Below are positions 6,791-41,000 of a stretch of 64,000 nucleotides of DNA, in pieces; position 1 is the stretch's first letter, and the number at the start of each line of letters is the position of its first letter. The stretch is from positions 7,739 through 71,738 of the forward strand of contig JAFTWG010000013.1 of the NCBI GenBank assembly GCA_017465405.1. The letters are read 5' to 3'. This DNA is from Alphaproteobacteria bacterium. Lineage in GTDB: Bacteria; Pseudomonadota; Alphaproteobacteria; RF32; CAG-239. The notes beneath the pieces were generated by a model. The model saw nothing but the letters and a program-made list of their open reading frames with translations. It was not told the origin of the DNA and searched no databases. A program made the position numbers and the translations under genes.

Positions 6791-7780
6791 ATGACTTTGA
6801 ATAAAAAAGAAATAGTAGCTTTACTAAACGATGAAAAAAATCAAGATGTTTTATTTAAACAAGCAGATGAAATTCGCAAACAATATGTCGGTGACGAAGT
6901 TCATTTACGCGGATTGATAGAATTTTCAAATATATGTCGTAATAATTGTTTATATTGCGGTATCAGAAGCGGTAATAAAGAAGCTCAAAGATACAGAATG
7001 GAGCCGGAAGAAATTATTGCAACAGCCAAACAAGCCGCAGATATGGGATTTAAGACTATCGTGATGCAATCAGGCGAAGATATGTATTATAATATTGATA
7101 GAATGTGTCACATTATTAAAGAAATCAAAAAATTTGATGTAGCTGTAACCTTGAGTATCGGTGAACGTTCTTATGAAGAATATAAGGCATTTCGTGAAGC
7201 CGGAGCAGACAGATATTTGATGAGAATAGAAACAACCGACAAAGATTTATATCACCAACTTGACCCTAATATGAGTTGGCAAAATAGATATGATTGTCTA
7301 ATGATGATAAAAGAGCTGGGATATGAATTAGGTTCGGGAATTATGGTCGGTTTGCCTAACCAATCTGTTGAGTCAATCGCCGAAGATTTACTTTTCTTAA
7401 AGGACATAGAAGTAGATATGTCTGGTATCGGCCCATTCATTCCTCATCCTCAAACTCCATTAGGAAAAGAGCAGGGCGGAGCGCTAAATTTAGCCTTGAG
7501 AACAATGGCGATTATGCGTTTATTGTTACCGGATATAAATATTCCGGCAACTACCGCAATGGAAACTTTGCACCCTCAAGGAAGAATTATGGCTTTGCAG
7601 GCCGGTGCAAATGTTGTTATGCCTAATGTTAACTCGGGCGAATATAGAAAACTTTATCAACTATATCCGGGAAAAAATAATGCCGATGTTGCTTCTACGC
7701 ATGCTCAAAGTGATGTCGGTAAAAAGATTATTTCTATCGGACGAACAATAGGTAAAGGTTACGGAGGTCATAAAAAATAA
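6791..7780 (+). CDS. hydE: [FeFe]-hydrogenase maturase HydE-like radical SAM protein
   Basis: CxxxCxxC motif in the context IEFSNICRNNCLYCGIRSGN, which matches HydE rather than BioB. AAGGAG RBS at 6779-6784, ATG at 6791. The track start at 6773 is a TTG. Confidence 0.7.
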   Translation: MTLNKKEIVALLNDEKNQDVLFKQADEIRKQYVGDEVHLRGLIEFSNICRNNCLYCGIRSGNKEAQRYRMEPEEIIATAKQAADMGFKTIVMQSGEDMYYNIDRMCHIIKEIKKFDVAVTLSIGERSYEEYKAFREAGADRYLMRIETTDKDLYHQLDPNMSWQNRYDCLMMIKELGYELGSGIMVGLPNQSVESIAEDLLFLKDIEVDMSGIGPFIPHPQTPLGKEQGGALNLALRTMAIMRLLLPDINIPATTAMETLHPQGRIMALQAGANVVMPNVNSGEYRKLYQLYPGKNNADVASTHAQSDVGKKIISIGRTIGKGYGGHKK

Positions 7781-12600: not shown

Positions 12601-12771
12601 ATGGTGGTGGCAACGGGAGCAGGAGCAAACAGCCGTATTGCAATCGGTGTTCCGGTATTTTATGGAATGCTAATCGGTACAGCAGCCGGACTAATAATTA
12701 TTCCAATGTTGTACGTGTTGTTCCAAACAATAACCGAAAAACTGTTTCCTAAAAAAGAAATAACTGAATAA
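9652..12771 (+). CDS. RND multidrug efflux transporter (AcrB/MexB family, HAE1)
   Basis: 1039 aa, 12-TM architecture with two large periplasmic loops. Conserved AcrB motifs, e.g. [12 protein letters not shown]. No outer-membrane factor gene in the operon. Confidence 0.9.
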
Positions 12772-12779
12772 TAACAAAA

Positions 12780-12811
12780 AAATCGCTTTGAAATTCAAGG
12801 CGATTTTTTTG
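12780..12811 (+). terminator. rho-independent terminator after the RND pump (atcgctttgaa / ttcaaggcgat, then T7)
   Basis: Stem-loop plus T-run. Confidence 0.6.
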
Positions 12812-12831
12812 ATGTAACGATTATTTATATC

Positions 12832-12860
12832 TTGACTTTTTGTCTAATTTTTAGGATAAT
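12832..12860 (+). promoter_or_regulatory. sigma70-like promoter TTGACT-N17-GATAAT upstream of the foreign gene
   Basis: Near-consensus -35/-10 with 17-nt spacer in host-like AT-rich DNA. Confidence 0.4.
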
Positions 12861-12888
12861 AAAAGTCTAACCAAATATTATTTATACA

Positions 12889-13935
12889 ATGATTACTAAA
12901 AATTACTTTTTCCTCACTAATGAGGAGTCTAACAAGGGTTATTCATCATCAGTTCGTGCAATGGCAGCTTGCTGTCCTCATGACAAAGTTATCGACGCAA
13001 ACGATATAGAGAGGCTTCCGAATGATTCGGTTCTCGTATCTGCCGGTAACATGGGTTATGAGCTTCTTAAGAAGTACGGAAACGGACAGGAGATGATTTT
13101 GGCTACTGACCGCTATTCAGGCGAAGATCTCGATGCTCTCAACTGCCATCTTCTTACCATCATCGCACCTCAGTGTGAGTTGGATAAGTACAAGGCAGCG
13201 ACACGCCGTGAGCTTATTCTCGTTCCTGCTGATATGGTGGCATGTCCTACCAAGAAGCAGATGGAGGAGTGGTGTCATGACTTCATCGACAACAATACAA
13301 AGGAAGTTTTCGATAGCATTTTCGAAAATCGTCCGGAGTATTACTTCTTCTTCGGTGGTCGCGTAGCTGATTATACTCAGCCAACCGGTTGGAAAGAGAA
13401 CAGTGTTGAGCAGTTTGAGGACACTGCCGAGCGTCTTATGCTTGAGGCTGATGGTCGCCACACCTTCGTAGTATTCCACGGCTTGCGTTCACGCACACGT
13501 GGTGATAAGTCTAACGACTTCGCTCCACAGAATGCGGCAATCGCAAAGTTCCGCGAGATGCGTACAGAGGGACAGGTTGTGCTTGTTCTCGGCTTTATGG
13601 AGAATGGTCCATCGCTCTTGGTTATCAAGGACGGCGAGGAGGTTCTCTATCCTATTAACAACGCAAATGCCGGTGGCTACTACCTCGCTATTCACATGGC
13701 GGTTAAGAGTAGTGCTAAGATGGTGTTTACTGCCGAGCAGATGAACTTCATGAATGAGGCTCTCACCATGGGTTCGTTGGTCAACTGGCGTAATATCCGT
13801 CCTTTCGGTACCGTTGACGGATGGTTACTGACCGTTCCTTCAAACGAGGAAACGCACCGCAATGTGTATATCACGTTGAAGGAGCAGGGGATTCCTTTGA
13901 CTCAGGTCGAGGCTTTCCGTAAAATCATCGGTTAA
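12889..13935 (+). CDS. hypothetical protein (348 aa) of foreign composition; contains YYFFFGG and Rossmann-like GG segments
   Basis: GC about 47-50% against about 33% for the flanks, from roughly 12950 on. Codon preference switches to GAG/AAG/CTC/CGT/TTC/ATC. Many long antisense ORFs appear only here. No confident family assignment. Confidence 0.55.
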   Translation: MITKNYFFLTNEESNKGYSSSVRAMAACCPHDKVIDANDIERLPNDSVLVSAGNMGYELLKKYGNGQEMILATDRYSGEDLDALNCHLLTIIAPQCELDKYKAATRRELILVPADMVACPTKKQMEEWCHDFIDNNTKEVFDSIFENRPEYYFFFGGRVADYTQPTGWKENSVEQFEDTAERLMLEADGRHTFVVFHGLRSRTRGDKSNDFAPQNAAIAKFREMRTEGQVVLVLGFMENGPSLLVIKDGEEVLYPINNANAGGYYLAIHMAVKSSAKMVFTAEQMNFMNEALTMGSLVNWRNIRPFGTVDGWLLTVPSNEETHRNVYITLKEQGIPLTQVEAFRKIIG

Positions 13936-14023
13936 TCCTTGTTGGAATTGGAGATACAGGTGTCGCATTTGCGGCACCTGTTCTTTTATACAGAAAATCC
14001 TGAGCTTAGTTGGGAGTGTATGC

Positions 14024-14056
14024 AAAAAAGCGGAGTTTGTTACTCCGCTTTTTTTG
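14024..14056. terminator. bidirectional terminator (gcggagt-ttgtt-actccgc, T7) shared by the foreign gene and the convergent small gene
   Basis: 7-bp GC-rich stem with U-runs on both strands. A second hairpin (acaggtg...cacctgt) lies at about 13957-13984. Confidence 0.55.
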
Positions 14057-14261
14057 TGCTTTCAATTTTTATGGAAGTTACTTCTTCTTCCAATTTTTTT
14101 ATTCCGTTTTCAATGGTTGATTTTGTTCCGTTTGCAGCATCACTGCTCACTTGCAAAACCGATGTGTCTTCATTAATTTTTCCGTCATAAATATCTTTAC
14201 CGATAACATAAATAAGTACGACTAAAATGATATAAAATATGTATTTGAATAATGTTCCCAT
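14040..14261 (-). CDS. small N-terminally anchored protein (73 aa, one TM then a charged coiled tail)
   Basis: GGAG RBS 8 nt upstream on the minus strand. Host-like AT-rich codons. Stop lies inside the terminator. Confidence 0.45.
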   Translation of the reverse strand: MGTLFKYIFYIILVVLIYVIGKDIYDGKINEDTSVLQVSSDAANGTKSTIENGIKKLEEEVTSIKIESTKKAE

Positions 14262-17093: not shown

Positions 17094-17108
17094 GTTATGG
17101 TAAAAAAT

Positions 17109-18071
17109 TTATTTCTTTTTATTTTTAAAGCTAAATTTTATCCCACATATTTTATATATAATTTTATTGTTTTTTTGAGCTATAGAAAAAACTTTATTTA
17201 ATATTCTGTGTGTATTATAATACTTTCCATTATCAACATCAAAGTACCGTTTAGGTAATTTTATCATTTTTCCAAGAGTATAATCCCAATGAGGAGGATA
17301 GAACTCTCCCAGACCTGACATTGAGGTAAATGTCATTTCTCCAAAATATATTTTATTGTTAACGTTGTATAAATCCACTCTAACCATACAAAAATTTTTT
17401 GATAAAATTTCTGCTAACTTTATCATTTCTGTTAAATTATCTGGTTTGAGTATAGTTTCTTCTATTTCAGGCCATTTTACACGTACGTCAAGTTTATTCC
17501 AGTGTGTATCATATATATTTCTTTTATGTTCTTGAGTTCCGCTATTTATATCTAACCAAATTTGTTCTACTTTACCATCAAAACAAAGGAAACGATAGTC
17601 ATATAAATTTTGCTCTATTTCCTCTATAAATTTTTCAATAATAATTTTAGGTTTAATATTAAAATAATGTAGTTCATAACCGGCATGAAATGCAAAATTT
17701 TCGCTCATCCATTTATTTATTTTTTGTTTAGCATCTTGCTTATCTAAATTATTTTTATTGCGGACAATAATATTGTATCCACTACCATGATTACATTTAA
17801 TAATAAATTTATTTGGTAGTTCATCAAAATTTATTTCGTCAAAGTTATCATACACTCCTAATAACGGGATTAAATATTCTGAACCTATTTTTTCTTTTAT
17901 CCAATCTCTGACTAAATATTTATCAGTTAGTTGTGTTTTTATCGGAGTTGAATCATACAGCTTAAGCCACTGTATTTTTTCATTAAAAGTTTGAGGATTT
18001 GATAAATCAATATCCTTTTGTGTCATTTTTTTATACCAAACTTGTAGGTCTTTTTGATATTTATGTTCCAT
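17109..18071 (-). CDS. TupA-like ATP-grasp protein (teichuronopeptide-type amino-acid ligase family)
   Basis: KCNHGSG motif and overall pattern of the ATPgrasp_TupA family. C-terminal tag KIIYKICGIKFSFKNKKK. Confidence 0.65.
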   Translation of the reverse strand: MEHKYQKDLQVWYKKMTQKDIDLSNPQTFNEKIQWLKLYDSTPIKTQLTDKYLVRDWIKEKIGSEYLIPLLGVYDNFDEINFDELPNKFIIKCNHGSGYNIIVRNKNNLDKQDAKQKINKWMSENFAFHAGYELHYFNIKPKIIIEKFIEEIEQNLYDYRFLCFDGKVEQIWLDINSGTQEHKRNIYDTHWNKLDVRVKWPEIEETILKPDNLTEMIKLAEILSKNFCMVRVDLYNVNNKIYFGEMTFTSMSGLGEFYPPHWDYTLGKMIKLPKRYFDVDNGKYYNTHRILNKVFSIAQKNNKIIYKICGIKFSFKNKKK

Positions 18072-18115
18072 ACCTTAGTATCCTTTCTTTAAACACATTA
18101 GATTTATGTATTATT

Positions 18116-20566
18116 TTAATTGTTATATTTTTTATCTATTATTTCTTGTATGTCTTTTTTATATTTGGGAGAACACACTGATAAACAAGTTTGTAATATT
18201 TTTTTAGCTTGTGCTTTTTGATCATTTTCTGAAGCTCCAGTCCAGACACCATGATTATGTTGTCTGTAAACAGATAAAGGTGAATTTATAAAACCTATGT
18301 AACCTTTTTGTTCTAAATAAAAGGCTAAAGTTATTTCGTTAAACCTTATTGAATATATTTTTTTAGGCAATTTTTTCATATATTTACTTATAAATAGACA
18401 TGATGAAAAATTAGCAATTAAATTTAAATATTTACTTTCAATAAAATCACTACCTTTTAGCTTTGATGATAATTTTTGTTGGCGATTAAGTAATATAATT
18501 TTTTTGGTGTCTTCTTGTAAAACTTTTATTTTGTTAAATACCATAGAACAATCTTGATTAGATTCGAGAAAATATGCTTGTTTATGTAATTTATATTCAT
18601 CTTCCCAATAATCATCACCTTCTAAAACAGCAATATATTTTCCGGATGCTTGTTGAAAACATTTTTTCATGTTTTCGGATATGCCAAGATTTTTTTCTGA
18701 TGATATATCTTTAATTAAGTTAGGATATTTTTTTGCATATTCTTTTATTATTTCTCTGGTATTATCCGTTGAGCCATCATCAGATATTAATATTTCGTGA
18801 TGAAAATATCCTTGTTGTTTTATAGCACTTTCTATCGCTTGTGCTATATATTTTTCATGATTATATGTTGTTATCACGGTGCTTACAGTAAAAGAACAAT
18901 GTTTTTTGCGTATATATTCTAAATTTTTTTCGTAATTACTGTTGTTAGAAATACGTGCATGGTTATCTAAATCATTATATAATAATGTTGGTAATGCAAT
19001 ATAATAAGGTGAATACTTTTTTGTATATGTTAAAATTAAATCCCAGTCCACTAATCTTGTCATATTTTCATCAAATCCACCTAATTCTTTATAGATTTGT
19101 CTATGGTGAATTATAGTTCCTAAATCAATATAATTTGCTTCAATTAGTTTTTCAAAAATGAAATAGTGTCCCGTAATATTGAAATTGGATATTTTTCTAA
19201 ATTGGGAGTAATATACTTTATGTTCATTATGTTGTATTCCATCTGCAAAAACTTCGAGGTAGTTGGGATATACCATATTATCTGAATCTACATATCCAAT
19301 CCAATCATATTGTGCATTTTGCAATCCGATATTACGGGCTTTACAAACACCCTCATTATCTTTGTATATATATTTTATTTTTCCGGATTGTAATTCTTTT
19401 GGGTATGAGTTTTTTATAAATTCTTCTGTGCCGTCCGTAGAACCATCATCAATGATAATAAGTTCAAAATTTTGATATGTTTGGTTGAGGACGGAATTAA
19501 TGCTTTTTGATATTAATTCTTTACGATTATACGTTGGCATAATTAAAGAGAATTTTGTATTATTATCTATATCGACATAATATTCTTTTAATAGTTCATA
19601 CACATGCTTATTTTTGTTTTTTATATATTCTATTAAATTATTTATTCCATCAATATTACAACCGTATTTATTTATAGCCTTAACTTTTATAAGAGGAGCC
19701 TTTTTTTCTAATAAAAAAATAGGAAAAATGGTTAGGTTTTTATGATAAATATATGGATAATCATTAGTTGGGTTATATTCAACATAACTATCAGCGATAA
19801 ATCCATGTTTAAGTAGGTGTTGACTTAATCCTATTTCATATTTTTTTATAACTTTTTGAACGGAACTTTGCGGTTTTATATTTTTTATAAATTTTATAAA
19901 ATGACGAGAATTAAAGACATTCTTTTGAAATACTAAGAAGTAACTTTGGATATGTTCTGCTATTTCAATATTTTGAGTCATTCCCCAGAAATCGCAACTG
20001 CGGGTTGACATTTCTTCAAACATTTCAGAAAACGGATATACCGGACCATAACAACTATCATTGCAAAAAACAAGTTCTTCGCAGTCTTTTAAAAGTCCGT
20101 TTTTCTTTGCCCAAAAGAAACCTCTCTTATAAGAGCCAAAATCATATTCTTCGTGTCTTTGACATTCTGCATAAACAATAAAATCTTTTATTTTTTCTAA
20201 TTCTGTTGGCAGAATAGGGTTGTCAGTTACAAAAATTATTCCATCTACAACTTTTTTAAGTTCTTTTAGGTAGTAAACTACATAATCAAGAATTAAACCA
20301 TCTTTATTAAAAGAAGCAAAAACCGCTAATCTCTTGAAGCTTTTATTGTTATCAAAAAGTTTTGTGCAGTTCTTTAATTCGGGGGCAAAAATAAGTTTTT
20401 GTTTTTTAGCTTTAGGTTTTATCTTCTTTGTGAATTTTATGCCTAAAATTTTTATAATCTTCTTGGTCGGTTTTTTGCTGATTTTTACCAGTGTTAAACC
20501 GAACAATTTATATTTTTTTGTTGAGCCTTTTCTTTTGTAGAACAATTTTTTTATAAAATTAGACAT
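18116..20566 (-). CDS. tri-domain glycosyltransferase: RgpF-like (rhamnan synthesis F) domain plus two GT2 domains
   Basis: 816 aa. Two GT-A DxD segments (IIIDDGSTDGT..., ILISDDGSTDNT...) after an RgpF-like region. N-terminus carries two copies of the shared tag (KKYKLFGLTLVKISKK, KKIIKILGIKFTKKIK). Confidence 0.7.
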   Translation of the reverse strand: MSNFIKKLFYKRKGSTKKYKLFGLTLVKISKKPTKKIIKILGIKFTKKIKPKAKKQKLIFAPELKNCTKLFDNNKSFKRLAVFASFNKDGLILDYVVYYLKELKKVVDGIIFVTDNPILPTELEKIKDFIVYAECQRHEEYDFGSYKRGFFWAKKNGLLKDCEELVFCNDSCYGPVYPFSEMFEEMSTRSCDFWGMTQNIEIAEHIQSYFLVFQKNVFNSRHFIKFIKNIKPQSSVQKVIKKYEIGLSQHLLKHGFIADSYVEYNPTNDYPYIYHKNLTIFPIFLLEKKAPLIKVKAINKYGCNIDGINNLIEYIKNKNKHVYELLKEYYVDIDNNTKFSLIMPTYNRKELISKSINSVLNQTYQNFELIIIDDGSTDGTEEFIKNSYPKELQSGKIKYIYKDNEGVCKARNIGLQNAQYDWIGYVDSDNMVYPNYLEVFADGIQHNEHKVYYSQFRKISNFNITGHYFIFEKLIEANYIDLGTIIHHRQIYKELGGFDENMTRLVDWDLILTYTKKYSPYYIALPTLLYNDLDNHARISNNSNYEKNLEYIRKKHCSFTVSTVITTYNHEKYIAQAIESAIKQQGYFHHEILISDDGSTDNTREIIKEYAKKYPNLIKDISSEKNLGISENMKKCFQQASGKYIAVLEGDDYWEDEYKLHKQAYFLESNQDCSMVFNKIKVLQEDTKKIILLNRQQKLSSKLKGSDFIESKYLNLIANFSSCLFISKYMKKLPKKIYSIRFNEITLAFYLEQKGYIGFINSPLSVYRQHNHGVWTGASENDQKAQAKKILQTCLSVCSPKYKKDIQEIIDKKYNN

Positions 20567-20568
20567 CG

Positions 20569-21417
20569 TTATCCTCTATAAACTGGTATTTTGCAAATTT
20601 TGATAATTGTGTGGTTGTTTTTAGTTGTTTTTTTGCTGTATAAGAAATGGTAACAACGGCAAGCATTCATAAATAAAACAGAAAAAATATCATTTTTTTG
20701 TGGAAATATTTTCTCATTTTGCAGTGTTACCAATGCACCGAAAACTCGCTCAAATATGTGGGCGAGAGCATTGCCTTGCGATGTTTTTCCGGTTGCCTCA
20801 AAGCTGTCTATCGTGTATCCTGCATCTATAATCGGTTTTAGCAATTTTGTACGCATCATAAACATTGTGCCGGCTACAAAAGTCAGTTTTTTGGGAATCG
20901 AAAATCCTAAACTTTTAATTGTATCGTTTACTTTATCTAAAATATTAGTATAGCTATCTGTTGATGATGTTACCAAATGTTTTGAGCCAATCATTCCGAT
21001 TTTTTCGTTGTTTTCAAACTTTTTAATGTTATCAGCAAAAATCTTTGGAGTGCCAATTAATGCTTCAACAAGCAAGGGCATCCAACATTTACGAGAAATC
21101 CAAACCCCATTTATTTTATCACCATTATTTAAGATTGTATTTTTAGTATGAATTTTTAATACATAGTCATAACTATCTATGTCAACATTGTTCAAAACAT
21201 GAATAAATGGGCCTACATCATAACCTTTATTAGGTACAATCAATATGTTAGCATTAGGAAAGCGAGATAGTATCTTTTGTTCCACTGCATCATTTTTTTC
21301 GACCATTGTAATATATAGGTCATAGCTAACAGATTGAATGTTAGACAATTTTTCAATGAAATAGTCTAATTGATCAATGTAATATAAATGCAAATGTACG
21401 AGTAGTGTTTTCTTCAT
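20569..21417 (-). CDS. RgpF (rhamnan synthesis protein F)-family glycosyltransferase-like protein
   Basis: 282 aa. Similarity to the N-terminal domain of the 816-aa neighbour. C-terminal tag HTIIKICKIPVYRG. Confidence 0.6.
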   Translation of the reverse strand: MKKTLLVHLHLYYIDQLDYFIEKLSNIQSVSYDLYITMVEKNDAVEQKILSRFPNANILIVPNKGYDVGPFIHVLNNVDIDSYDYVLKIHTKNTILNNGDKINGVWISRKCWMPLLVEALIGTPKIFADNIKKFENNEKIGMIGSKHLVTSSTDSYTNILDKVNDTIKSLGFSIPKKLTFVAGTMFMMRTKLLKPIIDAGYTIDSFEATGKTSQGNALAHIFERVFGALVTLQNEKIFPQKNDIFSVLFMNACRCYHFLYSKKTTKNNHTIIKICKIPVYRG

Positions 21418-21531
21418 TTTACAACCTTTGTTATATATTCGGATAATAGAGCATATATTATTAAATTCAATAAAAAATTGTGCAATTTATTAAATTAAAC
21501 AAAAGATTGTATTATGTCTTTGAAAATAAAT

Positions 21532-21781
21532 CAATTTTAGGTTGTTGAAAAATATTTTTTCTAGTGTTTTTATGATCTGATTCAATTAAAAATAGATAGT
21601 TTTGTTGTATTTGCTTTTAGGTTGTGAATAATGCCGTTAATTCAACTAAAAAACAAAATTTATATAAATATTCAATTTCAGGTTGCAAAAGTTCTTTTTA
21701 CTTCCAAAATGTAATACAGAATGTTCAAATATTCTGATGACGATAATAAAAGTTTTCTACCAAATGCAATTTTTAGTTGTT
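21532..21781. repeat. four dispersed copies of caATTTyAGGTTGyrAA (at about 21532, 21613, 21673, 21767) plus three copies of ATTCAAyTAAAAA in the 356-bp intergenic region
   Basis: Read directly; spacing about 81, 60 and 94 bp. Lies upstream of the RgpF-like gene and at the 3' end of the preceding GT gene. Confidence 0.4.
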
Positions 21782-23569
21782 TTTTAGTTTTATTTTCAAT
21801 CCAAATAAAACGATGGTCGTTCTGTTGTTGTCTCTTTTAATAAAGAAAAATTTTTCCATTATTTTTTTAATTGGTGGTAATTTTTTGAGCCTTTTATATA
21901 GCGTAGGGTAGTGTTGCAATAGATTATTCATTGCAATATCATTGCCACCTTCGGAATTAATGGTATTCCATAATCCGCTTTCTTGAGTTCCGTCTATATA
22001 ACTTAAATTTCCGTGGTTTTTTATACATGTCCTGATTTTGGTTCCTTGGACAACCGCCATTGCCCAAAACCATAAATCATCGGTTGACGGGCAGATAGAC
22101 ATAAATATATCCGTTCTATTTACATCTTTATAAAGCGTTTTAGGAGGGAATAAGACAGTAGCTCCTGTTGTTGGCATAAGGTTGTATGAATGTGAACCAT
22201 ATTTTATGTTATTTATCCATTTGTTATATTTTTTTATCTTTTGGTTTTTATCAAATAAAATATAATGAGCTCTGCTGGAAATTATGCTATCAGGATACTT
22301 AAGATGTGATTTGTATAAATTTTTTATACAATCATGGTTATATATTAAATCGTCATCCGCCGTTATAATTACGGATTGTGGAAATTTATCCAATGCCGGA
22401 ATAAGTTTTTTATATGATTTGATGTTTTCGCACCAATATATTGAAAAGTTTATGTTTGTATCTGACAAATTCAGTAAATTGTCCGGTAAACCTTTTTCTT
22501 TATTGGGAAAATCGTCTTCGGATAACCACAATATTATATTATCGGGTTTAAGTGATTGATTTAAAAAGCTTTGTATCGCAATATGAACGGTATCTATCCT
22601 TGCAGTGTAAGATGTCAGAGATACAATGAGTTTATTTCCAATGTCTTGTATTGCTAATTTTTTAAAATCGTCCTTACACTCTTTGGACATTGTGTTATAA
22701 AATGCGTTATAATCGATTATTTTTCTTTGCTTAATTATTTGTAAATATTCGTTTTTTTCTCCATCTGAAAAATCGCCGCTTTTTATTTTATCTTCAATTT
22801 GTTTGTATACTTCAAATACCTTAAAATCATCTCGTGTTTTTAGTTTTTGAGTTTGTGAATTGTTACGAATGATATAGTTGTATTGGGCATTGTGTGTTAT
22901 TGCAATTTTTTTTGCATAGCATACGGCAACATCAGTGAAATAGTTGTCTTCTGCCGGATTTTTTATTTCTAAACAATTTATGTCGTATTTGCTTAAAAAT
23001 GAACGTTTATAAATTTTGTTCCAACTTATTCCTGAGGCGATGATTATCGCTCCTTTTTCACGAGATGTACGTAAAATTTTACTTTTAGATTTTATGCCGG
23101 TGTGTTTTTTATATTGTTTATTGTCTTCGCAAACTATGACATTATCGGTAGCAGAAATATCTGCATCGTGTTTTTTCGCTACTTTATATAAATCGGCAAA
23201 ATATGTTTCATTAATGCTGTCATCAGAGTCCATAAAACCGATATATTCTCCCGTAGCATATTTTATAGCAGTATTTCTTGCGGCTGCCGAACCTTGATTT
23301 TTTTGTTTGATAATTTTGAAACGGGTATCGTTTTGTGCGTATTGTTTCAGTATATCTGATGAGTTGTCTGTAGAGCCGTCATCAACGCATATAATTTCAA
23401 TGTCTTTAAGCGTTTGGGCTGTAAGGCTGTTCAGAGATTGTATCAAATATTCCGCAGCATTATAAATAGGAATGATAACAGATATTTTCGGTCTGTTATT
23501 GGTTTCATTATGTACGGTTATTTCTACGATATTTTCTTTTCTAAAGTCTTCAGCTGTCGAGTTAAGCAT
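21773..23569 (-). CDS. two-domain glycosyltransferase (N-terminal GT2 plus C-terminal nucleotide-sugar transferase-like domain)
   Basis: 598 aa. GT-A motif ICVDDGSTDNS...FMDSDD. C-terminal tag TTIVLFGLKIKLKNN. Confidence 0.7.
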   Translation of the reverse strand: MLNSTAEDFRKENIVEITVHNETNNRPKISVIIPIYNAAEYLIQSLNSLTAQTLKDIEIICVDDGSTDNSSDILKQYAQNDTRFKIIKQKNQGSAAARNTAIKYATGEYIGFMDSDDSINETYFADLYKVAKKHDADISATDNVIVCEDNKQYKKHTGIKSKSKILRTSREKGAIIIASGISWNKIYKRSFLSKYDINCLEIKNPAEDNYFTDVAVCYAKKIAITHNAQYNYIIRNNSQTQKLKTRDDFKVFEVYKQIEDKIKSGDFSDGEKNEYLQIIKQRKIIDYNAFYNTMSKECKDDFKKLAIQDIGNKLIVSLTSYTARIDTVHIAIQSFLNQSLKPDNIILWLSEDDFPNKEKGLPDNLLNLSDTNINFSIYWCENIKSYKKLIPALDKFPQSVIITADDDLIYNHDCIKNLYKSHLKYPDSIISSRAHYILFDKNQKIKKYNKWINNIKYGSHSYNLMPTTGATVLFPPKTLYKDVNRTDIFMSICPSTDDLWFWAMAVVQGTKIRTCIKNHGNLSYIDGTQESGLWNTINSEGGNDIAMNNLLQHYPTLYKRLKKLPPIKKIMEKFFFIKRDNNRTTIVLFGLKIKLKNN

Positions 23570-23694
23570 TTTTATACATATTTTCTAAAAAATTAACATA
23601 AACTTGTTACATAATATATTATTTTAATGTTAATTCAATAGAAAATAATTTTTTTATACTGATAAAATCCGATGTAAAACAGTTCTTTGCTTTT

Positions 23695-24495
23695 CTATTT
23701 ATTCTTAAGACGAAAAACGGGTATTTTACAAATTTTTATAATAGTATGTCCTGATGCGGTTTGTTTTTTATGATATAAAAACTTCTTGATAAACAGATGC
23801 AAATTTGAGAAATACAATTTTTTATGTTTTTTATAAATATATGCCTTGAGCTGTTTTTGAGTTTTTTTATTAATTCTAGTTATAAATGAGCCGTCTGTTC
23901 GTCTATAATAAAAAAGAACTTCATCAACTCGATGAAAGACTTTGTTGTCTTCAACAAAATTGAGCCAAAATTCCCAGTCTTCAAGACCTTTATTCATATT
24001 GATATCATAGCCGCCATATTTTTCAAAATCTGATTTTTTATAGAGGGCAGAGCATACGACTTTATTGTTAAATATCATATTTTGCTTGGTCGGGAGTTCT
24101 AACTCAAAACGTCCTGTTTTTTCGCCAAAAAAGTCAACTAACGAAAAAATGACATCGCCTTTTTTTTGTTCCATTGCTTCATATAGTTTGGCTAAACAGT
24201 CCGGAGATATTTTATCATCTCCGTCTAGTGGAAAAATATATTTTCCTTGAGCATTTTTAATACCGTTGTTGCGTGCGGTTACAAGTCTGCTGTTTTTCTG
24301 GTCCAACAGTTTGATTTTATCGCTTTTTTTAGTGTATTCTTTTATTATGTTTAACGAGTTGTCGGTTGAACCGTCGTTTACAACAATACACTCCCAATTT
24401 TCAAAAGATTGAGCCAAAACGGAATCAATACATTCTCCAATATATTTTTCTTGATTATAGCAAGGAATAATTACGCTTATTTCAGGTGTTATCAT
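23695..24495 (-). CDS. family-2 glycosyltransferase
   Basis: 266 aa. IVVNDGSTDNS and FPLDGDD motifs. C-terminal tag HTIIKICKIPVFRLKNK, and the DNA of this tail is about 80% identical to the tail of 20569..21417. Confidence 0.8.
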   Translation of the reverse strand: MITPEISVIIPCYNQEKYIGECIDSVLAQSFENWECIVVNDGSTDNSLNIIKEYTKKSDKIKLLDQKNSRLVTARNNGIKNAQGKYIFPLDGDDKISPDCLAKLYEAMEQKKGDVIFSLVDFFGEKTGRFELELPTKQNMIFNNKVVCSALYKKSDFEKYGGYDINMNKGLEDWEFWLNFVEDNKVFHRVDEVLFYYRRTDGSFITRINKKTQKQLKAYIYKKHKKLYFSNLHLFIKKFLYHKKQTASGHTIIKICKIPVFRLKNK

Positions 24496-25577
24496 TGTTT
24501 TATACTCGCTTTAAAAATTGTTATTCCGCAAAAATAAATTTTTGTTTTGTAAGGTGTTCTTTTTATTTTAAATAGTGGTATTCCCAAAAACTTTATGGTG
24601 GTTTTATCTCCTTTTTTTATAACTTTAGCAAAAGTTACAATTCCAAAAAATTTTATTTTTCGTATTTTTTTATCATTGTAATATAGTGCAGTTTCAAAGA
24701 TGTTGAATAACTCATCTGATAATGTTTCTTTTGCTGTTTTTGCAAAAAGTTGTTTTTGTTCTTCATTGCAGTGTAAAAGTTCGTTTAAAAATACTCCTCT
24801 TGCTTTACAGTGAAAGGTTGGAGAAAAAGTATCTAATAAATTATGTTTTTTTAAGTTATTTTTTAGGGCATTTAAGGCATAAATTCCGTTTATTGCTTTG
24901 GCTCCACGATTAGCGGAAATATTGTTTTTTTGATTGGTACGATAATGAACAAATTTTTTGTCTGTTATACTTATTGATTTTGCTAAAGTAAGCATTGTAT
25001 ATGTGAAAGTGACATCATTACAAGATGTTAAATCTTCGAAAAAAACAGCGTTTTCTTTAACCAGAGTTGCTTTAAACATCTTGTTCCAAGCACAAGCACT
25101 TGTCATTGTAAACAACTCTTCAGAATAGTTTTGCGGATTGATTGGAGACGCATTTGAGTATTTTGAGAGAATACTGGGCGGACAAACTGTTTTTCCCGTA
25201 GAATCATCAAAAATAGTGTTTTCGCAAATTGCAATGTCCGAATTTTCATTTATTATTTGGTTTAGCATTTCTTCGACCATATTAAGCTCAAAGAAATCAT
25301 CACAATCAAGAAACAACAGATAATCACCATTAGAATTTTCTATGCCTAAATTACGGGCTTTTCCTGCTCCGATATGTTCTCCGGATAATATTTTTATTCG
25401 CTTATCGTTTTCTTCATATTCTTTTAAAATAGAAAGAGAATTGTCGGTAGACGCATCGTTAATACAAATAATTTCAATATTTTTATATGTTTGATTGACT
25501 ATGCTGTCCAAACATTGTTTGAGATAATTTTCGGCATTGTAAACCGGCACAATTATGCTGACTTTTTTATTATTCAT
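24492..25577 (-). CDS. family-2 glycosyltransferase with triple C-terminal tag
   Basis: 361 aa. ICINDASTDNS...FLDCDD. C-terminal 50 aa carry three tandem tag copies (KIKFFGIVTFAKVIKK / TTIKFLGIPLFKIKR / KIYFCGITIFKASIKQ). ATGA overlap with the downstream gene. Confidence 0.8.
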   Translation of the reverse strand: MNNKKVSIIVPVYNAENYLKQCLDSIVNQTYKNIEIICINDASTDNSLSILKEYEENDKRIKILSGEHIGAGKARNLGIENSNGDYLLFLDCDDFFELNMVEEMLNQIINENSDIAICENTIFDDSTGKTVCPPSILSKYSNASPINPQNYSEELFTMTSACAWNKMFKATLVKENAVFFEDLTSCNDVTFTYTMLTLAKSISITDKKFVHYRTNQKNNISANRGAKAINGIYALNALKNNLKKHNLLDTFSPTFHCKARGVFLNELLHCNEEQKQLFAKTAKETLSDELFNIFETALYYNDKKIRKIKFFGIVTFAKVIKKGDKTTIKFLGIPLFKIKRTPYKTKIYFCGITIFKASIKQ

Positions 25578-25797
25578 ATCAACTTATTTCCCAGTGAAAA
25601 TTCTATGCGCCGTATGATAGAACATTTAAAAGTAAATTCAATAAAAAAATATGTTATAATAATGTGTACAATATCATTGAAAATTCGTGATATTTTTTTA
25701 TATCAAAAAATATAGCTGATAAAATGCTTCTGGGGGTTGCAGTTTAAATATTAATACCTATATATTAGAAGTAACATATATAAAGGACGTTTGAGTA

Positions 25798-29849: not shown

Positions 29850-29878
29850 AAAAAAGCCCTCGTTAGAGGGCTTTATTT
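29850..29878 (-). terminator. terminator of the MORN-repeat gene (agccctc...gagggct with T6 on the minus strand)
   Basis: Hairpin abuts the stop codon at 29877-29879. Confidence 0.6.
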
Positions 29879-31403
29879 AGTTCGATAGATATTTATTTAT
29901 ATTATGAAGGTGTGCATTAGTCATCTTTATTTTTATATCATCATCATAAAAATATCCTGAAACAGCTTTTCCATTTTTGAAAGTTATTTCATTTATCAAA
30001 TGTTCATTATTGTCATATATTTTTACAAGTCCTTCTTTTTCATTGTTTATAAATGTTCCTTCTTGTTTTATATTACCATTTTTATGGTAGAATCTATAGT
30101 TTCCGTTTTTTATGTCATCTTCATAATGTAATTCTGTATCCAAATTACCATTACTGTAGTAGAGTTTATAAATGCCAACAAGCTTATCGTCTTTGCAAAA
30201 ACCTTCGCTTTCTATGTTGCCATTTTTATAGTATGACCTATAGCTACCATCTAATTTACCATTTTTATAGTCTTTTTCGCTTTTTAATTGACCACTTTCG
30301 TAATAGTATTTGTGTATAGTATGACCATTATCTTGATAAAATACTTCTTTTTTTAATTTGCCATCTGAAGAGTATTCTTTGTGAACACCATCTGGTGTAT
30401 CATGAAAAAAATTATTTTCGCTTTTTAATATACCATTATCATAGTATTCTTTACGTGTATTCTTGCCATAATCTTTATAAATTACCTCTTTTTTTACTTT
30501 GTCATTTTTATAATGGTACTCGTGTATTATATCATCATCTTTATAAATTTCTTCTCTTATTAATTGATCATATATGTTGTACCACTTCTCCGTACCATTA
30601 CCGTCTTTATAATTTCCTTCGCTTTCTAGTAACCCATTTTCATAGTATGATTTATGAATACCATCTCGTATATCATCTTTATAGTTATATTCACCTTTTA
30701 ATTTACCATTTTCATAATAGTATTTGTGAGTATTTTCTTTTAGTAAATATAGTTTATAATTTTTTTTGCTTTCGCCGAATTTATAATCTCCTTCGCTTTC
30801 TATATTCCCATTTTCATAGTATTTTTTGATTGTAGTGATATCATCTTTATCAATTACCTCTTCATCTAATATACCATCCGAAGTGTAACACTTCTTCGTA
30901 CCATTACCAGCATTATAGTCACCTTCACATCTTATTTTACCATTATACCAGTAATATTTTAATGTACCATCAAGTTGGTTATCTTTGTAATTCTCTTCAA
31001 CACTTAAGTGACCGTCTTCATAGTACCATTTTTGTAAACCATCATACCCACCATTTTTAAAATTCTCTTCACTTTTTAGCTGCCCATCTTCATAGTATGT
31101 TTTATAAATTCCATTTAGATTACCATATTTAAAGTTGCCTTCGCTTTCTATATTACCGTTTTTATAGTATGTTTTATAAATTCCTTCTGCTTTACCATCT
31201 TTGTAATTTGTTTCAATAAATAAATTACTATTTTCATGATATTGTTTAACCACTCCTGTTATTGGATTATCATTTAAATCACATGTCAGTTCCTCATTTT
31301 TACTACAAAATTTTGTGTTTTCTTCACTGTATTCTTTTGCATTTGCGAGGTGAGAGTGGGATAAAAGCATAAAAGATAAGGCTGTTAAGATGATTTTTTT
31401 CAT
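29877..31403 (-). CDS. secreted MORN-repeat-variant (YwqK-like) protein with about 20 tandem repeats
   Basis: Signal peptide MKKIILTALSFMLLSHSHLANA. Repeated YYENGxLxSEGNYKDGKxDG units every about 23 aa. Very AT-rich. Confidence 0.7.
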   Translation of the reverse strand: MKKIILTALSFMLLSHSHLANAKEYSEENTKFCSKNEELTCDLNDNPITGVVKQYHENSNLFIETNYKDGKAEGIYKTYYKNGNIESEGNFKYGNLNGIYKTYYEDGQLKSEENFKNGGYDGLQKWYYEDGHLSVEENYKDNQLDGTLKYYWYNGKIRCEGDYNAGNGTKKCYTSDGILDEEVIDKDDITTIKKYYENGNIESEGDYKFGESKKNYKLYLLKENTHKYYYENGKLKGEYNYKDDIRDGIHKSYYENGLLESEGNYKDGNGTEKWYNIYDQLIREEIYKDDDIIHEYHYKNDKVKKEVIYKDYGKNTRKEYYDNGILKSENNFFHDTPDGVHKEYSSDGKLKKEVFYQDNGHTIHKYYYESGQLKSEKDYKNGKLDGSYRSYYKNGNIESEGFCKDDKLVGIYKLYYSNGNLDTELHYEDDIKNGNYRFYHKNGNIKQEGTFINNEKEGLVKIYDNNEHLINEITFKNGKAVSGYFYDDDIKIKMTNAHLHNINKYLSN

Positions 31404-38081: not shown

Positions 38082-41000
38082 ATGAAAAATAAATTTTTTG
38101 CCGTATTGTTAGCCGGAACTTTTTTATCTACGAACGCTTTCTCTTGGAACTCTTGGAACTATCAAGGGGAAGGAAATTATTCTGAATATAGTGTATATAT
38201 CAATCAAACAACAAATATAACGGGGGATTTATATTTTAATGGAGGAGGTCCAGGTTATCAAACTTATATAATTTCAAATGGTAATCTGAGGGCTTTTCAA
38301 ATAGATTCCGGTAGAACAGGATCGTTAGCATTAGAAAATTCAGGTGTTGGTTCTATAAAAAATGCAGCGGCTCAAAGCGGAGGGGGCATATGGGTTAGTG
38401 AAAATGCTACAATGACGAAGATAATTTTGCGTTTAGTTGATAATAGAGCAACTCAATGGAATGGGGGCGGTATATTTAATGCCGGAAGAATTTATAGTAT
38501 TTCTGATATGGGAGATACATATAGAGGATATAATAGTGGTAATTTTGCTAATCAAACAGGTGGTGCTATTTTTAATGCTTCAAGTGGAACTATTGATGAA
38601 ATTGATATGTATTTTTCTACCAATACTGCCAACAAATATGGTGGAGCAATCGGCAATGAAGGTAAAATTGGCACGATTACTAGTACACTTAGTAGCAATA
38701 TAGCCGGAGAATCAGGAGGTGCTATTTATAATGTCGGGACAATAGACAAGATAACTGCAAGTTTTCAAGATAATGAAGCTAAAAAATATAATGGCGGAGC
38801 TATTTTTAACGGCGGGACAATTACAGATATAATTAACGGTGGTAATTATGTATTTAAGGGAAATAAAGCTGCTCAAAATGGTGGAGGAATTTTTAATGGT
38901 GCAACCGGAAAAATAACTAATGTAACCGTTGAAAGATTTCAAGAAAACCAAGCTCAAAAACATGGTGGTGCGATTAGCAATGAAGGAAGTATAAACCATA
39001 TTAGTGCTTATTCTTTTTACTCTAACACTGCTCAAAATGAAGGTGGTGCTATCTATAATATCGGTACCATTACCGATATATCCGGCAGTTTTTTTTCTAA
39101 TAGCGCGAAAAATGGTGGTGCAGTTGCAAACTCTTCTTCGGAGGAATGGTCTGATGCAGCTTGGGGATATGTAACTTTTACGGGAAACACAGAGAAAATA
39201 TCCGGAACTTTTACTGGCAATACTGCAACAGAAAGCGGTGGTGCTATTTATAATACCGGCACGATAAAAGAAATCTCCGGCAGTTTTACATCAAACAAAA
39301 CTACCACATACGATGGCGGTGCTGTTTATAATGCCGGTAGTGTTACTGATATAAAAGCGGATTCTTTTTCAAAAAATAGTGCAAAAAGAAGCGGTGGTGC
39401 TGTTTATAATTTAGTCAATGGTAAGATTGTTAACATTAATACTTCTTTTTCTGAAAACGAAGCTCAAAAATATGGCGGAGCTATCGGTAATGAGGGCGAA
39501 ATTGATGCGATTAATTCTAGCTTTTCATTGAATAAGGCCGGAGAAACCGGTGGTGCCGTTTATAATATCGGCACGATAAAAGAAATCTCCGGTAAATTTA
39601 CATCGAATAGTGCTAATCTGTATAATGGTGGTGCTATCTATAATGATGGCAATATTACGAATATACAGTCAGATTCGTTTTCTAAAAATACATCTGTTCA
39701 AAACAGTGGTGCTATATTTAATGGTGTAAACGGTAAAATTGCGGATATAACCGTTACCTCATTTTCTGAAAACAGTTCGCAGAAATATGCCGGTGCAATC
39801 GGTAATGAGGGCAGTATAGATAATATTACAGCCGATTTTTCTTCTAATATAGCAGGAATAAGCGGTGGTGCCGTTTATAATGATGGTATAATACAAAAAA
39901 TCTCCGGAGATTTTTCTTCGAATAGTGCAAATGCATATAACGGAGGCGCTATTTATAACAGCGATACCATCAACAAAATAGAATCATCAATGTTTGAGAA
40001 AAATTCTGCTGTTCAAAACGGAGGAGCAATCTTTAACTCTGTTGACGGAACAATTGATGAAATCGTTGTTGCCGATTTCGGATTTGTTGCCAACGAATCT
40101 CAAAATAAAGGCGGTGCAATCGGTAATGAAGGAAATATAAACAATATTAGTTCTTCTTTTTCCGAAAACTATGCTAAAGGTGAAGGTGGTGCAATTTATA
40201 ATGTCGGAACTATAAAAAATATCATTGCTGATTTTTCTTCCAATAAGACTGATACAAATGGTTCTGCTATTGCAAATACTCAGGCAGAAGAATGGAGCGA
40301 CAATCAAAAAGACTATGTTTTATACACCGGAACAATAGAAAATATTACCGGAACATTTGACAACAACTATGCAGGCGGAAATGGTGGTGCCGTTTATAAT
40401 TCCGGAATATTGGAAAGTATAAAAAATAGTAGTTTTAGCAATAATACTGCTGAAGGTTTGGGTGGTGCTATATATAGCAGTAACGGACTAAATCTGTTTT
40501 CTTCCGAATATGATATGCTATTTGAAAACAATAAAGATTCTACCGGTGCAAATGATATTTATATGGAGGGAGGAGAGTTAAATATAAATCTGACCAACAA
40601 CGGAACAATAACTTTTGAAAGCGGTATAAACGGTAAGGATTATAATATAAATACCTCCGGAGACGGAACAGGAACATTGAATATTAATTCAAGTTTCGGT
40701 AATGTCGGACAATTTATTGCTAAAGATATTAATATTAATTTAGTTGATGAGTCATTTTTAGATGCCGATGTATTGCAAATGACTAATGTAAATCTTAATA
40801 TAGCAAATGAAAAAACAGGAGCCATAAGTATAAAAGATTATATTGCTGATGCTACTACTTTAACAATGGATGTTGATACAAAAAATAATACTTCGGATAT
40901 ATTGAAAGTGGCAAATGATATTAGCGGAGAAACAAAACTTATTATAAATATGTTGAGTTCGGAAAAACAAACAGAGGAAATTGTTTTAGTTGAAGCTCAA

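Follow-up and report, generated by a model that had tools for sequence, protein, structure and literature searches.

When a single gene in an AT-rich bacterial chromosome carries a base composition and a choice of synonymous codons that match nothing around it, the question arises of whether it has recently arrived from elsewhere, or whether it has long been in place and its codons are kept distinct from those of its host. The gene that poses this question here is the open reading frame (ORF) 12889-13935, which lies on the forward strand and encodes 348 residues, within a 64,000-nucleotide stretch of contig JAFTWG010000013.1 from a bacterium of the alphaproteobacterial order RF32; the term “window” refers throughout to this whole stretch, whose overall GC content is 35.1%. 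An original prediction, made from the letters of the window, had proposed that the gene was a recently acquired, Bacteroidota-like insertion with a role such as defence or nucleotide modification. The follow-up analysis leads elsewhere. Taken as a whole, the reading of a long-resident orphan gene, diverging vertically alongside its neighbours and relocated on occasion, whose product would resemble enzymes of the glycosyltransferase-B (GT-B)/epimerase architecture and whose codon regime would be under selection, is the one toward which the evidence tips, if only slightly.

A codon regime at odds with its host

The ORF has a GC content of 0.478 (47.8%) and a GC content at third codon positions (GC3) of 0.530. 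When GC was computed in windows of 500 nucleotides along the 64 kb, the values of 0.484 at 13001-13500 and 0.486 at 13501-14000 represented the maximum, the remainder ranging from 0.24 to 0.44, and in terms of GC3 the ORF ranked at the top of 38 long ORFs (z = 5.0), the other 37 having a mean of approximately 0.28 and a standard deviation of 0.05. The jump in GC that had been read by eye is thus borne out by measurement (48.4-48.6%), as is the accompanying flip in codon usage: AAG is employed at a fraction of 0.78 versus 0.14 in the background, GAG at 0.86 versus 0.12, CAG at 1.00 versus 0.14, TTC at 0.78 versus 0.22, CTC at 0.36 versus 0.05, and ATC at 0.56 versus 0.17, while CGT and CGC together account for 0.95 versus 0.55, the other arginine codons being nearly unused. 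The four-fold boxes still end in T (GTT 0.57, GCT 0.41, GGT 0.57, CCT 0.62) and the use of CCG falls from 0.44 in the background to 0.15, leaving a codon set that consists of AAG, GAG, CAG, TTC, ATC, CTC/CTT, CGT/CGC, CCT and GGT. The existence of many core genes of such composition, an ordinary explanation that the original prediction had itself raised, was not what was found.

The anomaly is shared by homologues at other loci (denoted by handles such as L017), which fall into two groups. Clade A proteins have 345-354 residues and share at least 45% identity with the window protein, and their genes display a GC content of 48-56% at any host GC (35-47%), whereas clade B proteins, of 375-405 residues and approximately 30% identity to the window protein, are encoded by genes with the GC content of their hosts (28-34%). 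An index of G/C-ending codons for Lys, Glu, Gln and Phe (K/E/Q/F) reaches 0.84 in the window gene versus 0.16 in the background (z = 7.8); it places the clade A gene at the top of all ORFs in 10 of the 11 loci examined (z = 4.8-21.6), over a span of host GC3 from 0.26 to 0.53, and is ordinary in every clade B locus. The deviation in composition and codon usage is genuine, recurs from lineage to lineage and has strong statistical backing.

All of the alphaproteobacterial host backgrounds, including those of 47% GC, favour AAA, GAA and TTT at approximately 0.8, and the AAG/GAG/CAG/TTC signature fits none of the sampled hosts, nor does it fit the abundant-protein genes of relatives with 47% GC. 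These observations bear on the idea of ordinary translational selection, according to which a very highly expressed gene would carry the optimal codons of its host at their extreme. C-ending two-fold pyrimidine boxes, T-ending four-fold boxes and a preference for CGT form the classic optimal-codon pattern in many bacteria, and this gene displays all three, together with a near-consensus promoter, a strong terminator and an unstructured leader (see below). However, abundant-protein genes on the same contigs (those for L20, L35, L32, L25, HU, SSB, HSP20, AhpC, OmpH and YajC) are host-typical, with indices of 0.13-0.28 versus 0.61-0.71 for the copies of the gene under study, and AAG represents between 1/16 and 5/20 of their Lys codons; clade B homologues show no such bias, and the choice of AAG, GAG and CAG is opposite to host preference even at 47% GC. 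High expression is thus a very unlikely source of the signature.

GC-biased gene conversion at a recombination hotspot, which would lift the GC3 of the gene, offers another route to the same composition. The locus is indeed a hotspot of rearrangement, and a nearby radical-SAM/BATS gene (window 6791-7780) displays a synonymous divergence (dS) of 0.41 between the window and its close relative L012, compared with approximately 0.1 for the genes next to it, a jump that suggests a recent recombination tract. The bias of the gene under study is nevertheless codon-specific, as illustrated by the T-ending four-fold boxes and the depressed use of CCG, and GC is not raised in the adjacent intergenic DNA or in the neighbouring genes, all of which makes gene conversion a highly improbable explanation. 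Long antisense ORFs do cover the gene, as originally remarked, but their open stretches fail to coincide among homologues; an overlapping antisense gene was rejected on these grounds as the source of a third-position constraint, and the antisense ORFs are spurious, a by-product of composition, as had been supposed.

An old resident of the locus

The gene had been described as inserted after a TetR-MFP-RND operon, and its presence or absence across related genomes had been suggested as a check. It was found at the same position after this operon in six close-relative contigs, with protein identities of 91-98%, as for its neighbours (same-position copies are those of L012, L013, L014, L007 and L034, and also of L032 and L033; L012 is 96-98% identical to the window at the nucleotide level). 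No empty site was found among the close relatives sampled, each of which carries the gene. The suspicion that an ordinary housekeeping enzyme might occupy this site in all relatives was therefore half right: all of them do carry the gene, but its product is no ordinary housekeeping enzyme.

Synonymous divergence is in keeping with this distribution. Between the window and L014, dS is 0.61 for the gene and 0.48-1.19 for its flanks; between L009 and L015, 0.58 and 0.35-0.41; and between L017 and L029, 0.33 and 0.22-0.27. Its dS is therefore like that of its flanks in all three lineage pairs, the faster protein evolution seen in the latter two being accounted for by a 3-5-fold higher ratio of nonsynonymous to synonymous divergence (dN/dS), and its divergence scales with that of the host at every depth. 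In L009, L017 and L029, moreover, the gene is followed directly by gyrA; the GyrA proteins of these loci are 90-91% identical to that of the window, the copies of the gene being 51-62% identical, and pheS-pheT lies upstream in L009, L015, L017 and L029. A region of approximately 200 bp upstream of gyrA is homologous across the lineage of the window, L017, L029 and L009, and the terminator of the gene meets this region at the same point in the lineage of the window and in L017/L029, where the copies are approximately 51% identical. The common locus in all close relatives, the flank-like dS and a gyrA junction shared by such divergent copies lead, with fairly high confidence, to the view that the gene is likely an old resident that has co-diverged vertically with its hosts rather than a recent insertion. 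Its place next to gyrA, on the upstream side, goes back to an ancestor that several host lineages share, and on occasion it has moved to other loci as a unit of promoter, gene and terminator.

The view to be set against this is classical horizontal acquisition, once or repeatedly, from an unsampled donor of the AAG/GAG/TTC/CGT type, with a gene that is still ameliorating; persistence of the signature would then reflect too little time or repeated re-introduction. A codon usage that fits no sampled host is what such a donor would leave behind, and the gene brings its own promoter and terminator at four or more loci, resides in rearrangement-prone variable regions (a 42-kb breakpoint, autotransporters on either side) and lies within 10 kb of defence genes in L001, L004 and L028; the native composition of clade B, not shared by clade A, is also compatible with one transfer at the root of the latter. 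The flank-like dS and the old gyrA junction speak against it, as does the failure to detect a source: no donor, plasmid, phage or native-composition copy was present in any of the collections searched, with nothing in plasmids, phages or viral contigs and no native-composition clade A copy in scans of genomes and metagenomes (the latter yielding only four loci), which leaves the proposed Bacteroidota-like origin without a homologue to point to. In addition, no integrase, transposase, direct repeat or tRNA was seen at the borders of the cassette, the sole tRNA of the window being located 16 kb away.

Lawrence and Ochman have reportedly described horizontally acquired islets undergoing amelioration, and the comparison with these is instructive. 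The gene resembles them in its atypical GC and codons, in being a single accessory gene with its own signals in a variable region, and in an excess of GC->AT changes on recent branches (see below). It differs from them in having no empty site, mobility genes or donor, in co-diverging with its flanks, and in carrying a signature that is stationary over longer divergence and strongest under the strongest AT pressure.

Persistence of the codon signature

Whether the signature is fading or maintained was examined through outgroup-polarised and model-free tests, which replaced a first test on majority-polarised singletons that proved too crude and gave implausible flank equilibria. Among the K/E/Q/F codons that are G/C-ending in the window, only 3 of 59 (5%) are A/T-ending in L014 within the gene, compared with 70 of 112 (62%) in the flanks (p = 1.7e-14), a 12-fold better persistence; in the opposite direction, window codons that are A/T-ending have become G/C-ending in L014 at 7 of 9 sites in the gene, compared with 57 of 645 flanking sites (p = 2e-6). 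The overall synonymous turnover of the gene is similar to that of the flanks in each codon class, and conserved Lys/Glu/Gln/Phe codons of the flanks are approximately 70% relaxed to saturation in this comparison. Neutral decay at the flank rate predicts that approximately 0.6 of the sites would be G/C-ending and that approximately 45% would differ; in fact, 0.87-0.93 are G/C-ending and 15% differ (p < 1e-6). At the saturated divergence that separates L009 from L029 (dS > 1.4), the G/C-ending fraction is still approximately 0.55 in the gene and 0.30 in the flanks.

The signature thus outlasts saturated synonymous divergence. It is also strongest in the most AT-rich hosts, the reverse of what amelioration of a transferred gene would produce. 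From these substitution patterns, selection on codons is inferred, with moderate confidence, as an apparently active force in maintaining the bias; the gene-specific pattern would hold its own equilibrium against the AT-biased pressure of its hosts.

A rare family of hypothetical proteins

The window protein (MBQ8785051.1) is soluble and acidic (39 kDa, pI 5.2), with no predicted signal peptide or transmembrane segment, and every public name in its family is “hypothetical protein”. Searches with the single sequence gave no match in Pfam (E <= 1), NCBIfam, PADLOC, PHROGs or the sequences of the PDB, and a profile of 46 members gave none in Pfam or PDB sequences, in agreement with the initial statement that no family could be assigned. 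The family amounts to 21 clusters (90% identity) in a collection of 5.8 billion proteins, and an exhaustive profile search retrieved 40 representatives among 1.84 billion proteins; use of a wider profile at E <= 10 added no further members. According to genome records, nearly all of these proteins come from metagenome-assembled genomes of uncultured gut Alphaproteobacteria of ruminants, humans and other animals, and gut genomes of the order RF32 have been described as reduced (PMC8199421). Within the databases covered, this appears to be a rare, wholly unannotated family that is almost confined to uncultured gut Alphaproteobacteria.

The start position is conserved among homologues, and the conserved motifs, which are invariant or nearly so, include, both being judged across 22-46 sequences, K16-G-Y18, D74-R75, D115, FFFGGR (153-158), FHGLRS-T (196-203), Y264-Y265 and T281-x-EQMN---E290----G295. 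Of the features singled out by the original prediction, the Phe/Gly-rich motif is thus confirmed as conserved, while neither the CC pair nor the other Cys residues are, and a metal site built on them was rejected. The dN/dS ratio is 0.06-0.12 in the lineage of the window and 0.15 in two other lineage pairs; although the protein evolves 3-5 times faster than its housekeeping neighbours, these values (approximately 0.06-0.15 overall) indicate, with high confidence, a real and functional gene under purifying selection.

Two loci of clade B merit separate mention. In L022, which is labelled uncultured Bacteroidales, the clade B copy is preceded by ORFs of 313 and 196 residues, whose sizes and order recur in L020, L023 and L025, loci that are alphaproteobacterial or unclassified, the two in L020 encoding a Na/Ca exchanger and a DUF2062 protein; the Bacteroidales label is probably an error of binning or classification. 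In L021 (5554-11119), a clade B homologue that is 30% identical to the window protein directly follows an MFP-RND pump pair, which represents the second RND adjacency in the family. The pump is only 21-26% identical to that of the window, and the adjacency, rejected as a meaningful link, is probably a coincidence.

Predicted fold and comparison with known enzymes

An AlphaFold2 (AF2) model of the window protein (pLDDT 90.9, pTM 0.88) and one of the clade B protein P0018, which is 33% identical to it (pLDDT 88.7), were compared with known structures. The order of secondary structure elements in the AF2 model describes two alternating beta/alpha domains, covering residues 5-147 and 151-306, plus terminal helices. 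In Foldseek searches of the PDB, the top matches to the window model were the UDP-sugar 2-epimerases 8sxw, 1v4v, 7vza and 4zht, followed by TreT, glycogen synthase, OtsA and plant UGTs, with probabilities of up to 0.99 and TM-scores of approximately 0.44, while the P0018 model retrieved WecB-type epimerases (3dzc, 8sxw, 4zht) with probabilities of 0.96-1.00. Over both models, matches to epimerases have probabilities of 0.94-1.00 and TM-scores of 0.34-0.44, and are followed by glycosyltransferases of families GT4, GT20, GT1 and GT3. Among viral structures (BFVD), GT-B glycosyltransferases head the matches. A GT-B/UDP-sugar 2-epimerase-like fold with two Rossmann domains is thus predicted with high confidence, and the protein, as modelled, represents a distant and unclassified branch of this architecture.

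UDP-GlcNAc/UDP-sugar 2-epimerases of the WecB/MnaA type (PF02350; 8sxw, 3dzc, 1v4v, 4zht, 7vza) are the best structural match for both models, and share with them the two Rossmann-like domains separated by a cleft, as well as a similar size (approximately 350-380 residues). An hhalign comparison with WecB, the best of a set of weak sequence comparisons, pairs the FHGLRS motif with the GHRRES strand-loop of WecB, but is not significant (E = 0.013 over 90 columns, at only 3.4% probability), and the Epimerase_2 profile PF02350, which scores E. coli WecB at 430 bits as a control, matches neither the window protein (E <= 1) nor any of the 46 members (E <= 0.1). The two groups further differ in that superpositions yield TM-scores of 0.34-0.44 with a root-mean-square deviation of approximately 9-12 A, in that the invariant motifs FFFGGR, TxEQMN and YY are not those of Epimerase_2, and in that no glycan-synthesis cluster surrounds the gene.

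The architecture is also common to GT-B glycosyltransferases such as TreT (GT4), OtsA/Tps1 (GT20), glycogen synthase (GT3/5), plant UGTs (GT1) and viral group-1 enzymes, which the protein resembles in its Gly-rich loop after the first strand of the C-terminal domain and, in the model, in an acidic/polar helix-start motif, TxEQMNFxxEA, at what would be the GT-B donor-binding position; it differs from them in that no CAZy-type signature motif was identified in it. Candidate relatives within this group were rejected. Comparisons by hhalign with MurG (GT28; E = 0.096) and with LpxB (GT19, from L001; E = 0.24), whose control sequences were validated by Pfam, were not significant. ELM1/DUF1022 (PF06258), a GT-B-clan family that is common in Proteobacteria and that consists, like the protein under study, of a single domain pair of approximately 300-350 residues, offered a motif resemblance (TAEQMNFMNEALTMG versus TADSVSLISEACSTG); hhalign reproduced this pairing, but the link itself is not supported. 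There is no hmmscan match, and hhalign returns an E-value of 0.33 when a validated ELM1 sequence is the partner and a probability of 0.2% when the partner is a plant ELM1 profile.

In the model, the Gly-rich, His/Arg/Ser/Thr and Glu/Gln motifs occur where strands end and helices begin in the C-terminal domain. Because of the two-Rossmann fold and the placement of these motifs, a nucleotide-sugar-binding enzymatic role is proposed, with low to moderate confidence, as the most likely activity: the interdomain cleft would bind a nucleotide-sugar or a related nucleotide-diphosphate ligand, and the bound sugar would be transferred or epimerised.

The fold also bears on the suggestion that the product is a single-gene anti-phage defence protein or a nucleic-acid-modifying enzyme, for example a DNA glycosyltransferase. 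The gene is accessory and fast-evolving and resides in variable regions, and defence genes are found within 10 kb of it at three loci: Hachiman and Eco57I in L004; SLFN/AlbA, AAA_14 and a nucleotidyltransferase in L001; and GmrSD and a methyltransferase in L028. Phage DNA glucosyltransferases have GT-B folds. Searches of PADLOC (E <= 1) and PHROGs, however, gave no match, glucosyltransferases of the T4 type were outside the top 50 fold matches, no defence genes accompany the gene in the lineage of the window or in the pheT-gyrA loci, and dN/dS values of 0.06-0.15 give no sign of diversifying selection. The fold search that was suggested at the outset thus points to sugar-nucleotide enzymes and not to defence, and a defence role is very unlikely.

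Weighing maintenance against amelioration

A number of observations weigh against the reading of an old, relocatable gene with a selected codon regime and an enzymatic product, and are best considered together. On the short branches leading to the window and to L012, polarised with two outgroups, the gene has undergone 17 GC->AT and 6 AT->GC changes, compared with 85 and 142 in the flanks (p = 0.0013), an excess that an ameliorating gene would be expected to show. The persistence statistics are drawn from 59-68 codons of one gene in one main lineage pair, and the two shallower pairs are uninformative in this respect (p = 1 and 0.19). Maintenance is not uniform, the copy in L017 having a weak signature (index 0.38, z = 1.5). 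Copies at the other loci L016, L027 and L028 reveal that the cassette moves, and some of this movement may reflect horizontal exchange among related hosts. With respect to the product, the fold matches are modest (TM-score of at most 0.44, Foldseek E of approximately 1e-3), function being read from fold similarity only; no significant sequence-level link to any GT-B family was obtained with hhalign; and no operon partner recurs across the contexts of clades A and B from which a pathway could be deduced.

The short-branch excess has the direction of amelioration, but would equally arise from mutation bias combined with weak purifying selection on codons, and does not discriminate between the two. 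Since this excess coexists with long-term persistence, a mutation-selection balance is the simplest reading: G/C->A/T changes, supplied by AT-biased mutation, would be seen on short branches and would be purged with time. Horizontal acquisition with ongoing amelioration, in light of all of these data, is doubtful, though it retains an appreciable share of probability.

Codon-biased translation as a candidate mechanism

If the codon regime is indeed maintained by selection, one may ask what it serves. Shifts in tRNA pools or modifications can selectively favour the translation of genes that are rich in particular synonymous codons (PMC10702489), and the modification-tunable transcripts described by Dedon, Begley and colleagues in this context (PMC10702489) provide a point of comparison. 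As in these transcripts, the synonymous choice of the gene departs systematically from that of the genome, its bias affects the Lys, Glu and Gln families, whose codons are read either by U34 tRNAs with wobble modifications or by distinct C34 isoacceptors, and it likewise appears to be selectively maintained. The analysis, however, covers one gene, known from its sequence, and not an established regulon, and the likeness serves as a working analogy only.

Applied to this gene, the analogy suggests that C34 isoacceptor tRNAs or the modification state of U34 would gate its translation, or that of a small hidden regulon, such that the enzyme would be produced only under particular conditions. Host genomes are represented by fragments, and one clade B host contig carries a tRNA-Gln(CUG). 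That the regime of G/C-ending Lys, Glu and Gln codons and C-ending Phe and Ile codons might be a selected device of translational control, with a product founding a new GT-B/epimerase-like family that acts on a new substrate, is an unlikely proposal as it stands. Were it true, the foreign-looking codon usage would serve as a regulatory code and would not be a trace left by transfer.

A self-contained cassette and its signals

The gene is a self-contained monocistronic cassette, consisting of a promoter, a leader that lacks a Shine-Dalgarno (SD) sequence, the ORF and an intrinsic terminator. On its left it is bounded by the hairpin and T-run with which the upstream TetR-MFP-RND operon terminates (12781-12810, forward strand; AATCGCTTTGAAATTCAAGGCGATTTTTTT); this terminator directly follows the RND stop codon at 12771 and is kept in L012, L014, L013 and L007. 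A sigma-70-type promoter follows at 12832-12860 (TTGACT-17-GATAAT, forward strand), which matches the consensus at 10 of 12 positions, in line with the near-consensus promoter that had been proposed. Its -35 hexamer sits within a conserved near-palindrome, TTGACTTTTTGTCTA (12832-12846), and the promoter motif as an exact 15-nucleotide sequence, TTGACWTTTTGTCYA, takes the form TTGAC-N5-GTCtAA and has a single occurrence in the 64 kb. Each of 13 fetched loci has a single copy of the same 15 nucleotides, placed without exception 59-75 nucleotides upstream of the ATG of the homologue, and these loci represent three chromosomal contexts: after the RND gene, after pheT, and beside the radical-SAM gene. 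In a fourth context, beside a methyltransferase gene and the L25 gene in L028, the upstream sequence is a variant that is shorter by one base, TTGACTTTTGTCTA.

The A/T-rich leader (12861-12888, forward strand), whose transcription start is a predicted one, has no SD core of at least 4 nucleotides, such a core being present in 23 of the 38 ORFs of the window, and is predicted to be unstructured (0 kcal/mol). Nearly all clade A leaders are likewise devoid of an SD sequence and almost purely A/T, the exception being L027, whose leader closes with a weak GAAG; the block AAATTATT is common to most of them. The absence of an SD core was not retained as a strong anomaly, and is only mild, since 15 of the 38 host ORFs are also without a recognisable one. 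The coding sequence (12889-13935, forward strand) is followed by the intrinsic terminator that forms the right boundary of the cassette (13956-13987, forward strand), which has an 11-bp stem (ACAGGTGTCGC/GCGGCACCTGT) and a T-rich tail; its hairpin at 13956-13981 has a folding energy of -22.8 kcal/mol (z = -6.6). The stem, GGTGyyGCA...TGCrrCACC, is common to copies at the other loci L015, L016 and L009, and is found in four contexts, with base changes in its centre that preserve pairing. Because the motif and the stem are shared by several chromosomal contexts, promoter, gene and terminator appear to have been relocated together a few times inside this bacterial group. No structured RNA of the cassette matched Rfam at the gathering score.

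Two closing hairpins had been proposed for the gene, and both exist and are strong, but only that at 13956-13981 belongs to it. The second (14024-14054), flanked by an A-run and a T-run and bidirectional, has a folding energy of -20.9 kcal/mol (z = -6.4) and terminates the convergent 73-residue ORF at 14040-14261 on the reverse strand. It is missing downstream of the gene in L012, L013, L014 and L007, and thus appears to be part of the 42-kb segment described below, outside of the cassette in relatives. Independent assemblies also annotate the 73-residue ORF itself as a gene; its product has a hydrophobic helix at the N-terminus and matches no family. A promoter-like sequence, TTGACT-17-TAAAAT, with 10 of 12 consensus positions, is also present at 13897-13925, inside the 3' end of the gene and ahead of its terminator, and is probably a chance match.

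Chromosomal surroundings

The point at which the cassette ends is also a point of rearrangement. Collinearity by blastn and alignment of the junctions place a breakpoint at 13987/13988: in six close relatives, what comes right after the terminator is the DNA that the window has from 55925 onward, upstream of gyrA, while the window carries 41.9 kb (13988-55924) in between. This segment includes core genes (Lon, an RNB-family exoribonuclease of the RNase II/R type, MlaA/MlaC, tRNA-Val), as well as DegT, peptidases, a low-GC glycan cluster and an autotransporter. In view of these core genes, and of the recurrence of the window arrangement in 9 independent contigs, the difference is a genuine intraspecies chromosomal rearrangement, and neither a mobile island nor a misassembly.

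Autotransporter genes also adjoin the homologue in the pheT-gyrA interval, downstream of it in L009 (11335-13986) and upstream in L029 (6537-9875), and a Chlam_PMP-repeat autotransporter is located at window 38082-42083, inside the 42-kb segment. Autotransporters were rejected as partners of the gene since they lie on opposite sides in L009 and L029 and do not stand beside it in the lineage of the window; accessory genes for surface proteins seem to have a hotspot in the pheT-gyrA interval. The 329-residue radical-SAM gene that lies near the gene in the window is also encountered in L016, where, as in L001, the radical-SAM/BATS orthologue (76% amino acid identity) is arranged head-to-head with the homologue; the contig also has HydF.

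The region upstream of gyrA (55925-56130), which is conserved across lineages, contains two copies of the repeat TTTTTTTGCYCGTACAG and an invariant block, AAAAATCGATTTTAAGG, and may be the regulatory region of gyrA. The gyrA gene itself is seemingly interrupted or partly duplicated in L017 (10136-11486), where a 126-residue N-terminal GyrA fragment is followed by a reverse ORF of 125 residues, the main gyrA match starting at 11486. L012, L013 and L014 carry approximately 850 bp of additional sequence at window position ~59955-59966, between a zeta-toxin/AAA_33-like gene (59220-59960) and the next gene. Lastly, two stretches of the window deviate in composition in the direction opposite to that of the gene under study, with 24-34% GC in 500-nucleotide windows and a GC3 of 0.18-0.28: the first (17100-25600) harbours GT2/RgpF glycosyltransferases and an ATP-grasp TupA-like gene and resembles an O-antigen or rhamnan locus, and the second (29877-31403) encodes a MORN-repeat protein.

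Implications

Annotation practice tends to follow the rule that atypical GC content and codon usage equal recent horizontal transfer, and this locus provides a clean counter-example. A syntenic gene that holds a private codon equilibrium across host GC3 values of 0.26-0.53 displays unusual evolutionary behaviour, while its protein, on the evidence of the models, represents a new and unclassified variant of a known architecture. The conserved near-palindromic promoter motif, unique to the cassette, offers a handle by which to find the regulator. If selection on its codons is confirmed, the gene would become a natural system in which to study what maintains a gene-specific synonymous code in bacteria, with the tRNA pool, wobble modification and constraints at the level of the mRNA as candidate maintainers. 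The analysis also defines a rare, unannotated family with a confident GT-B/epimerase-like model, in little-studied, reduced-genome gut Alphaproteobacteria.

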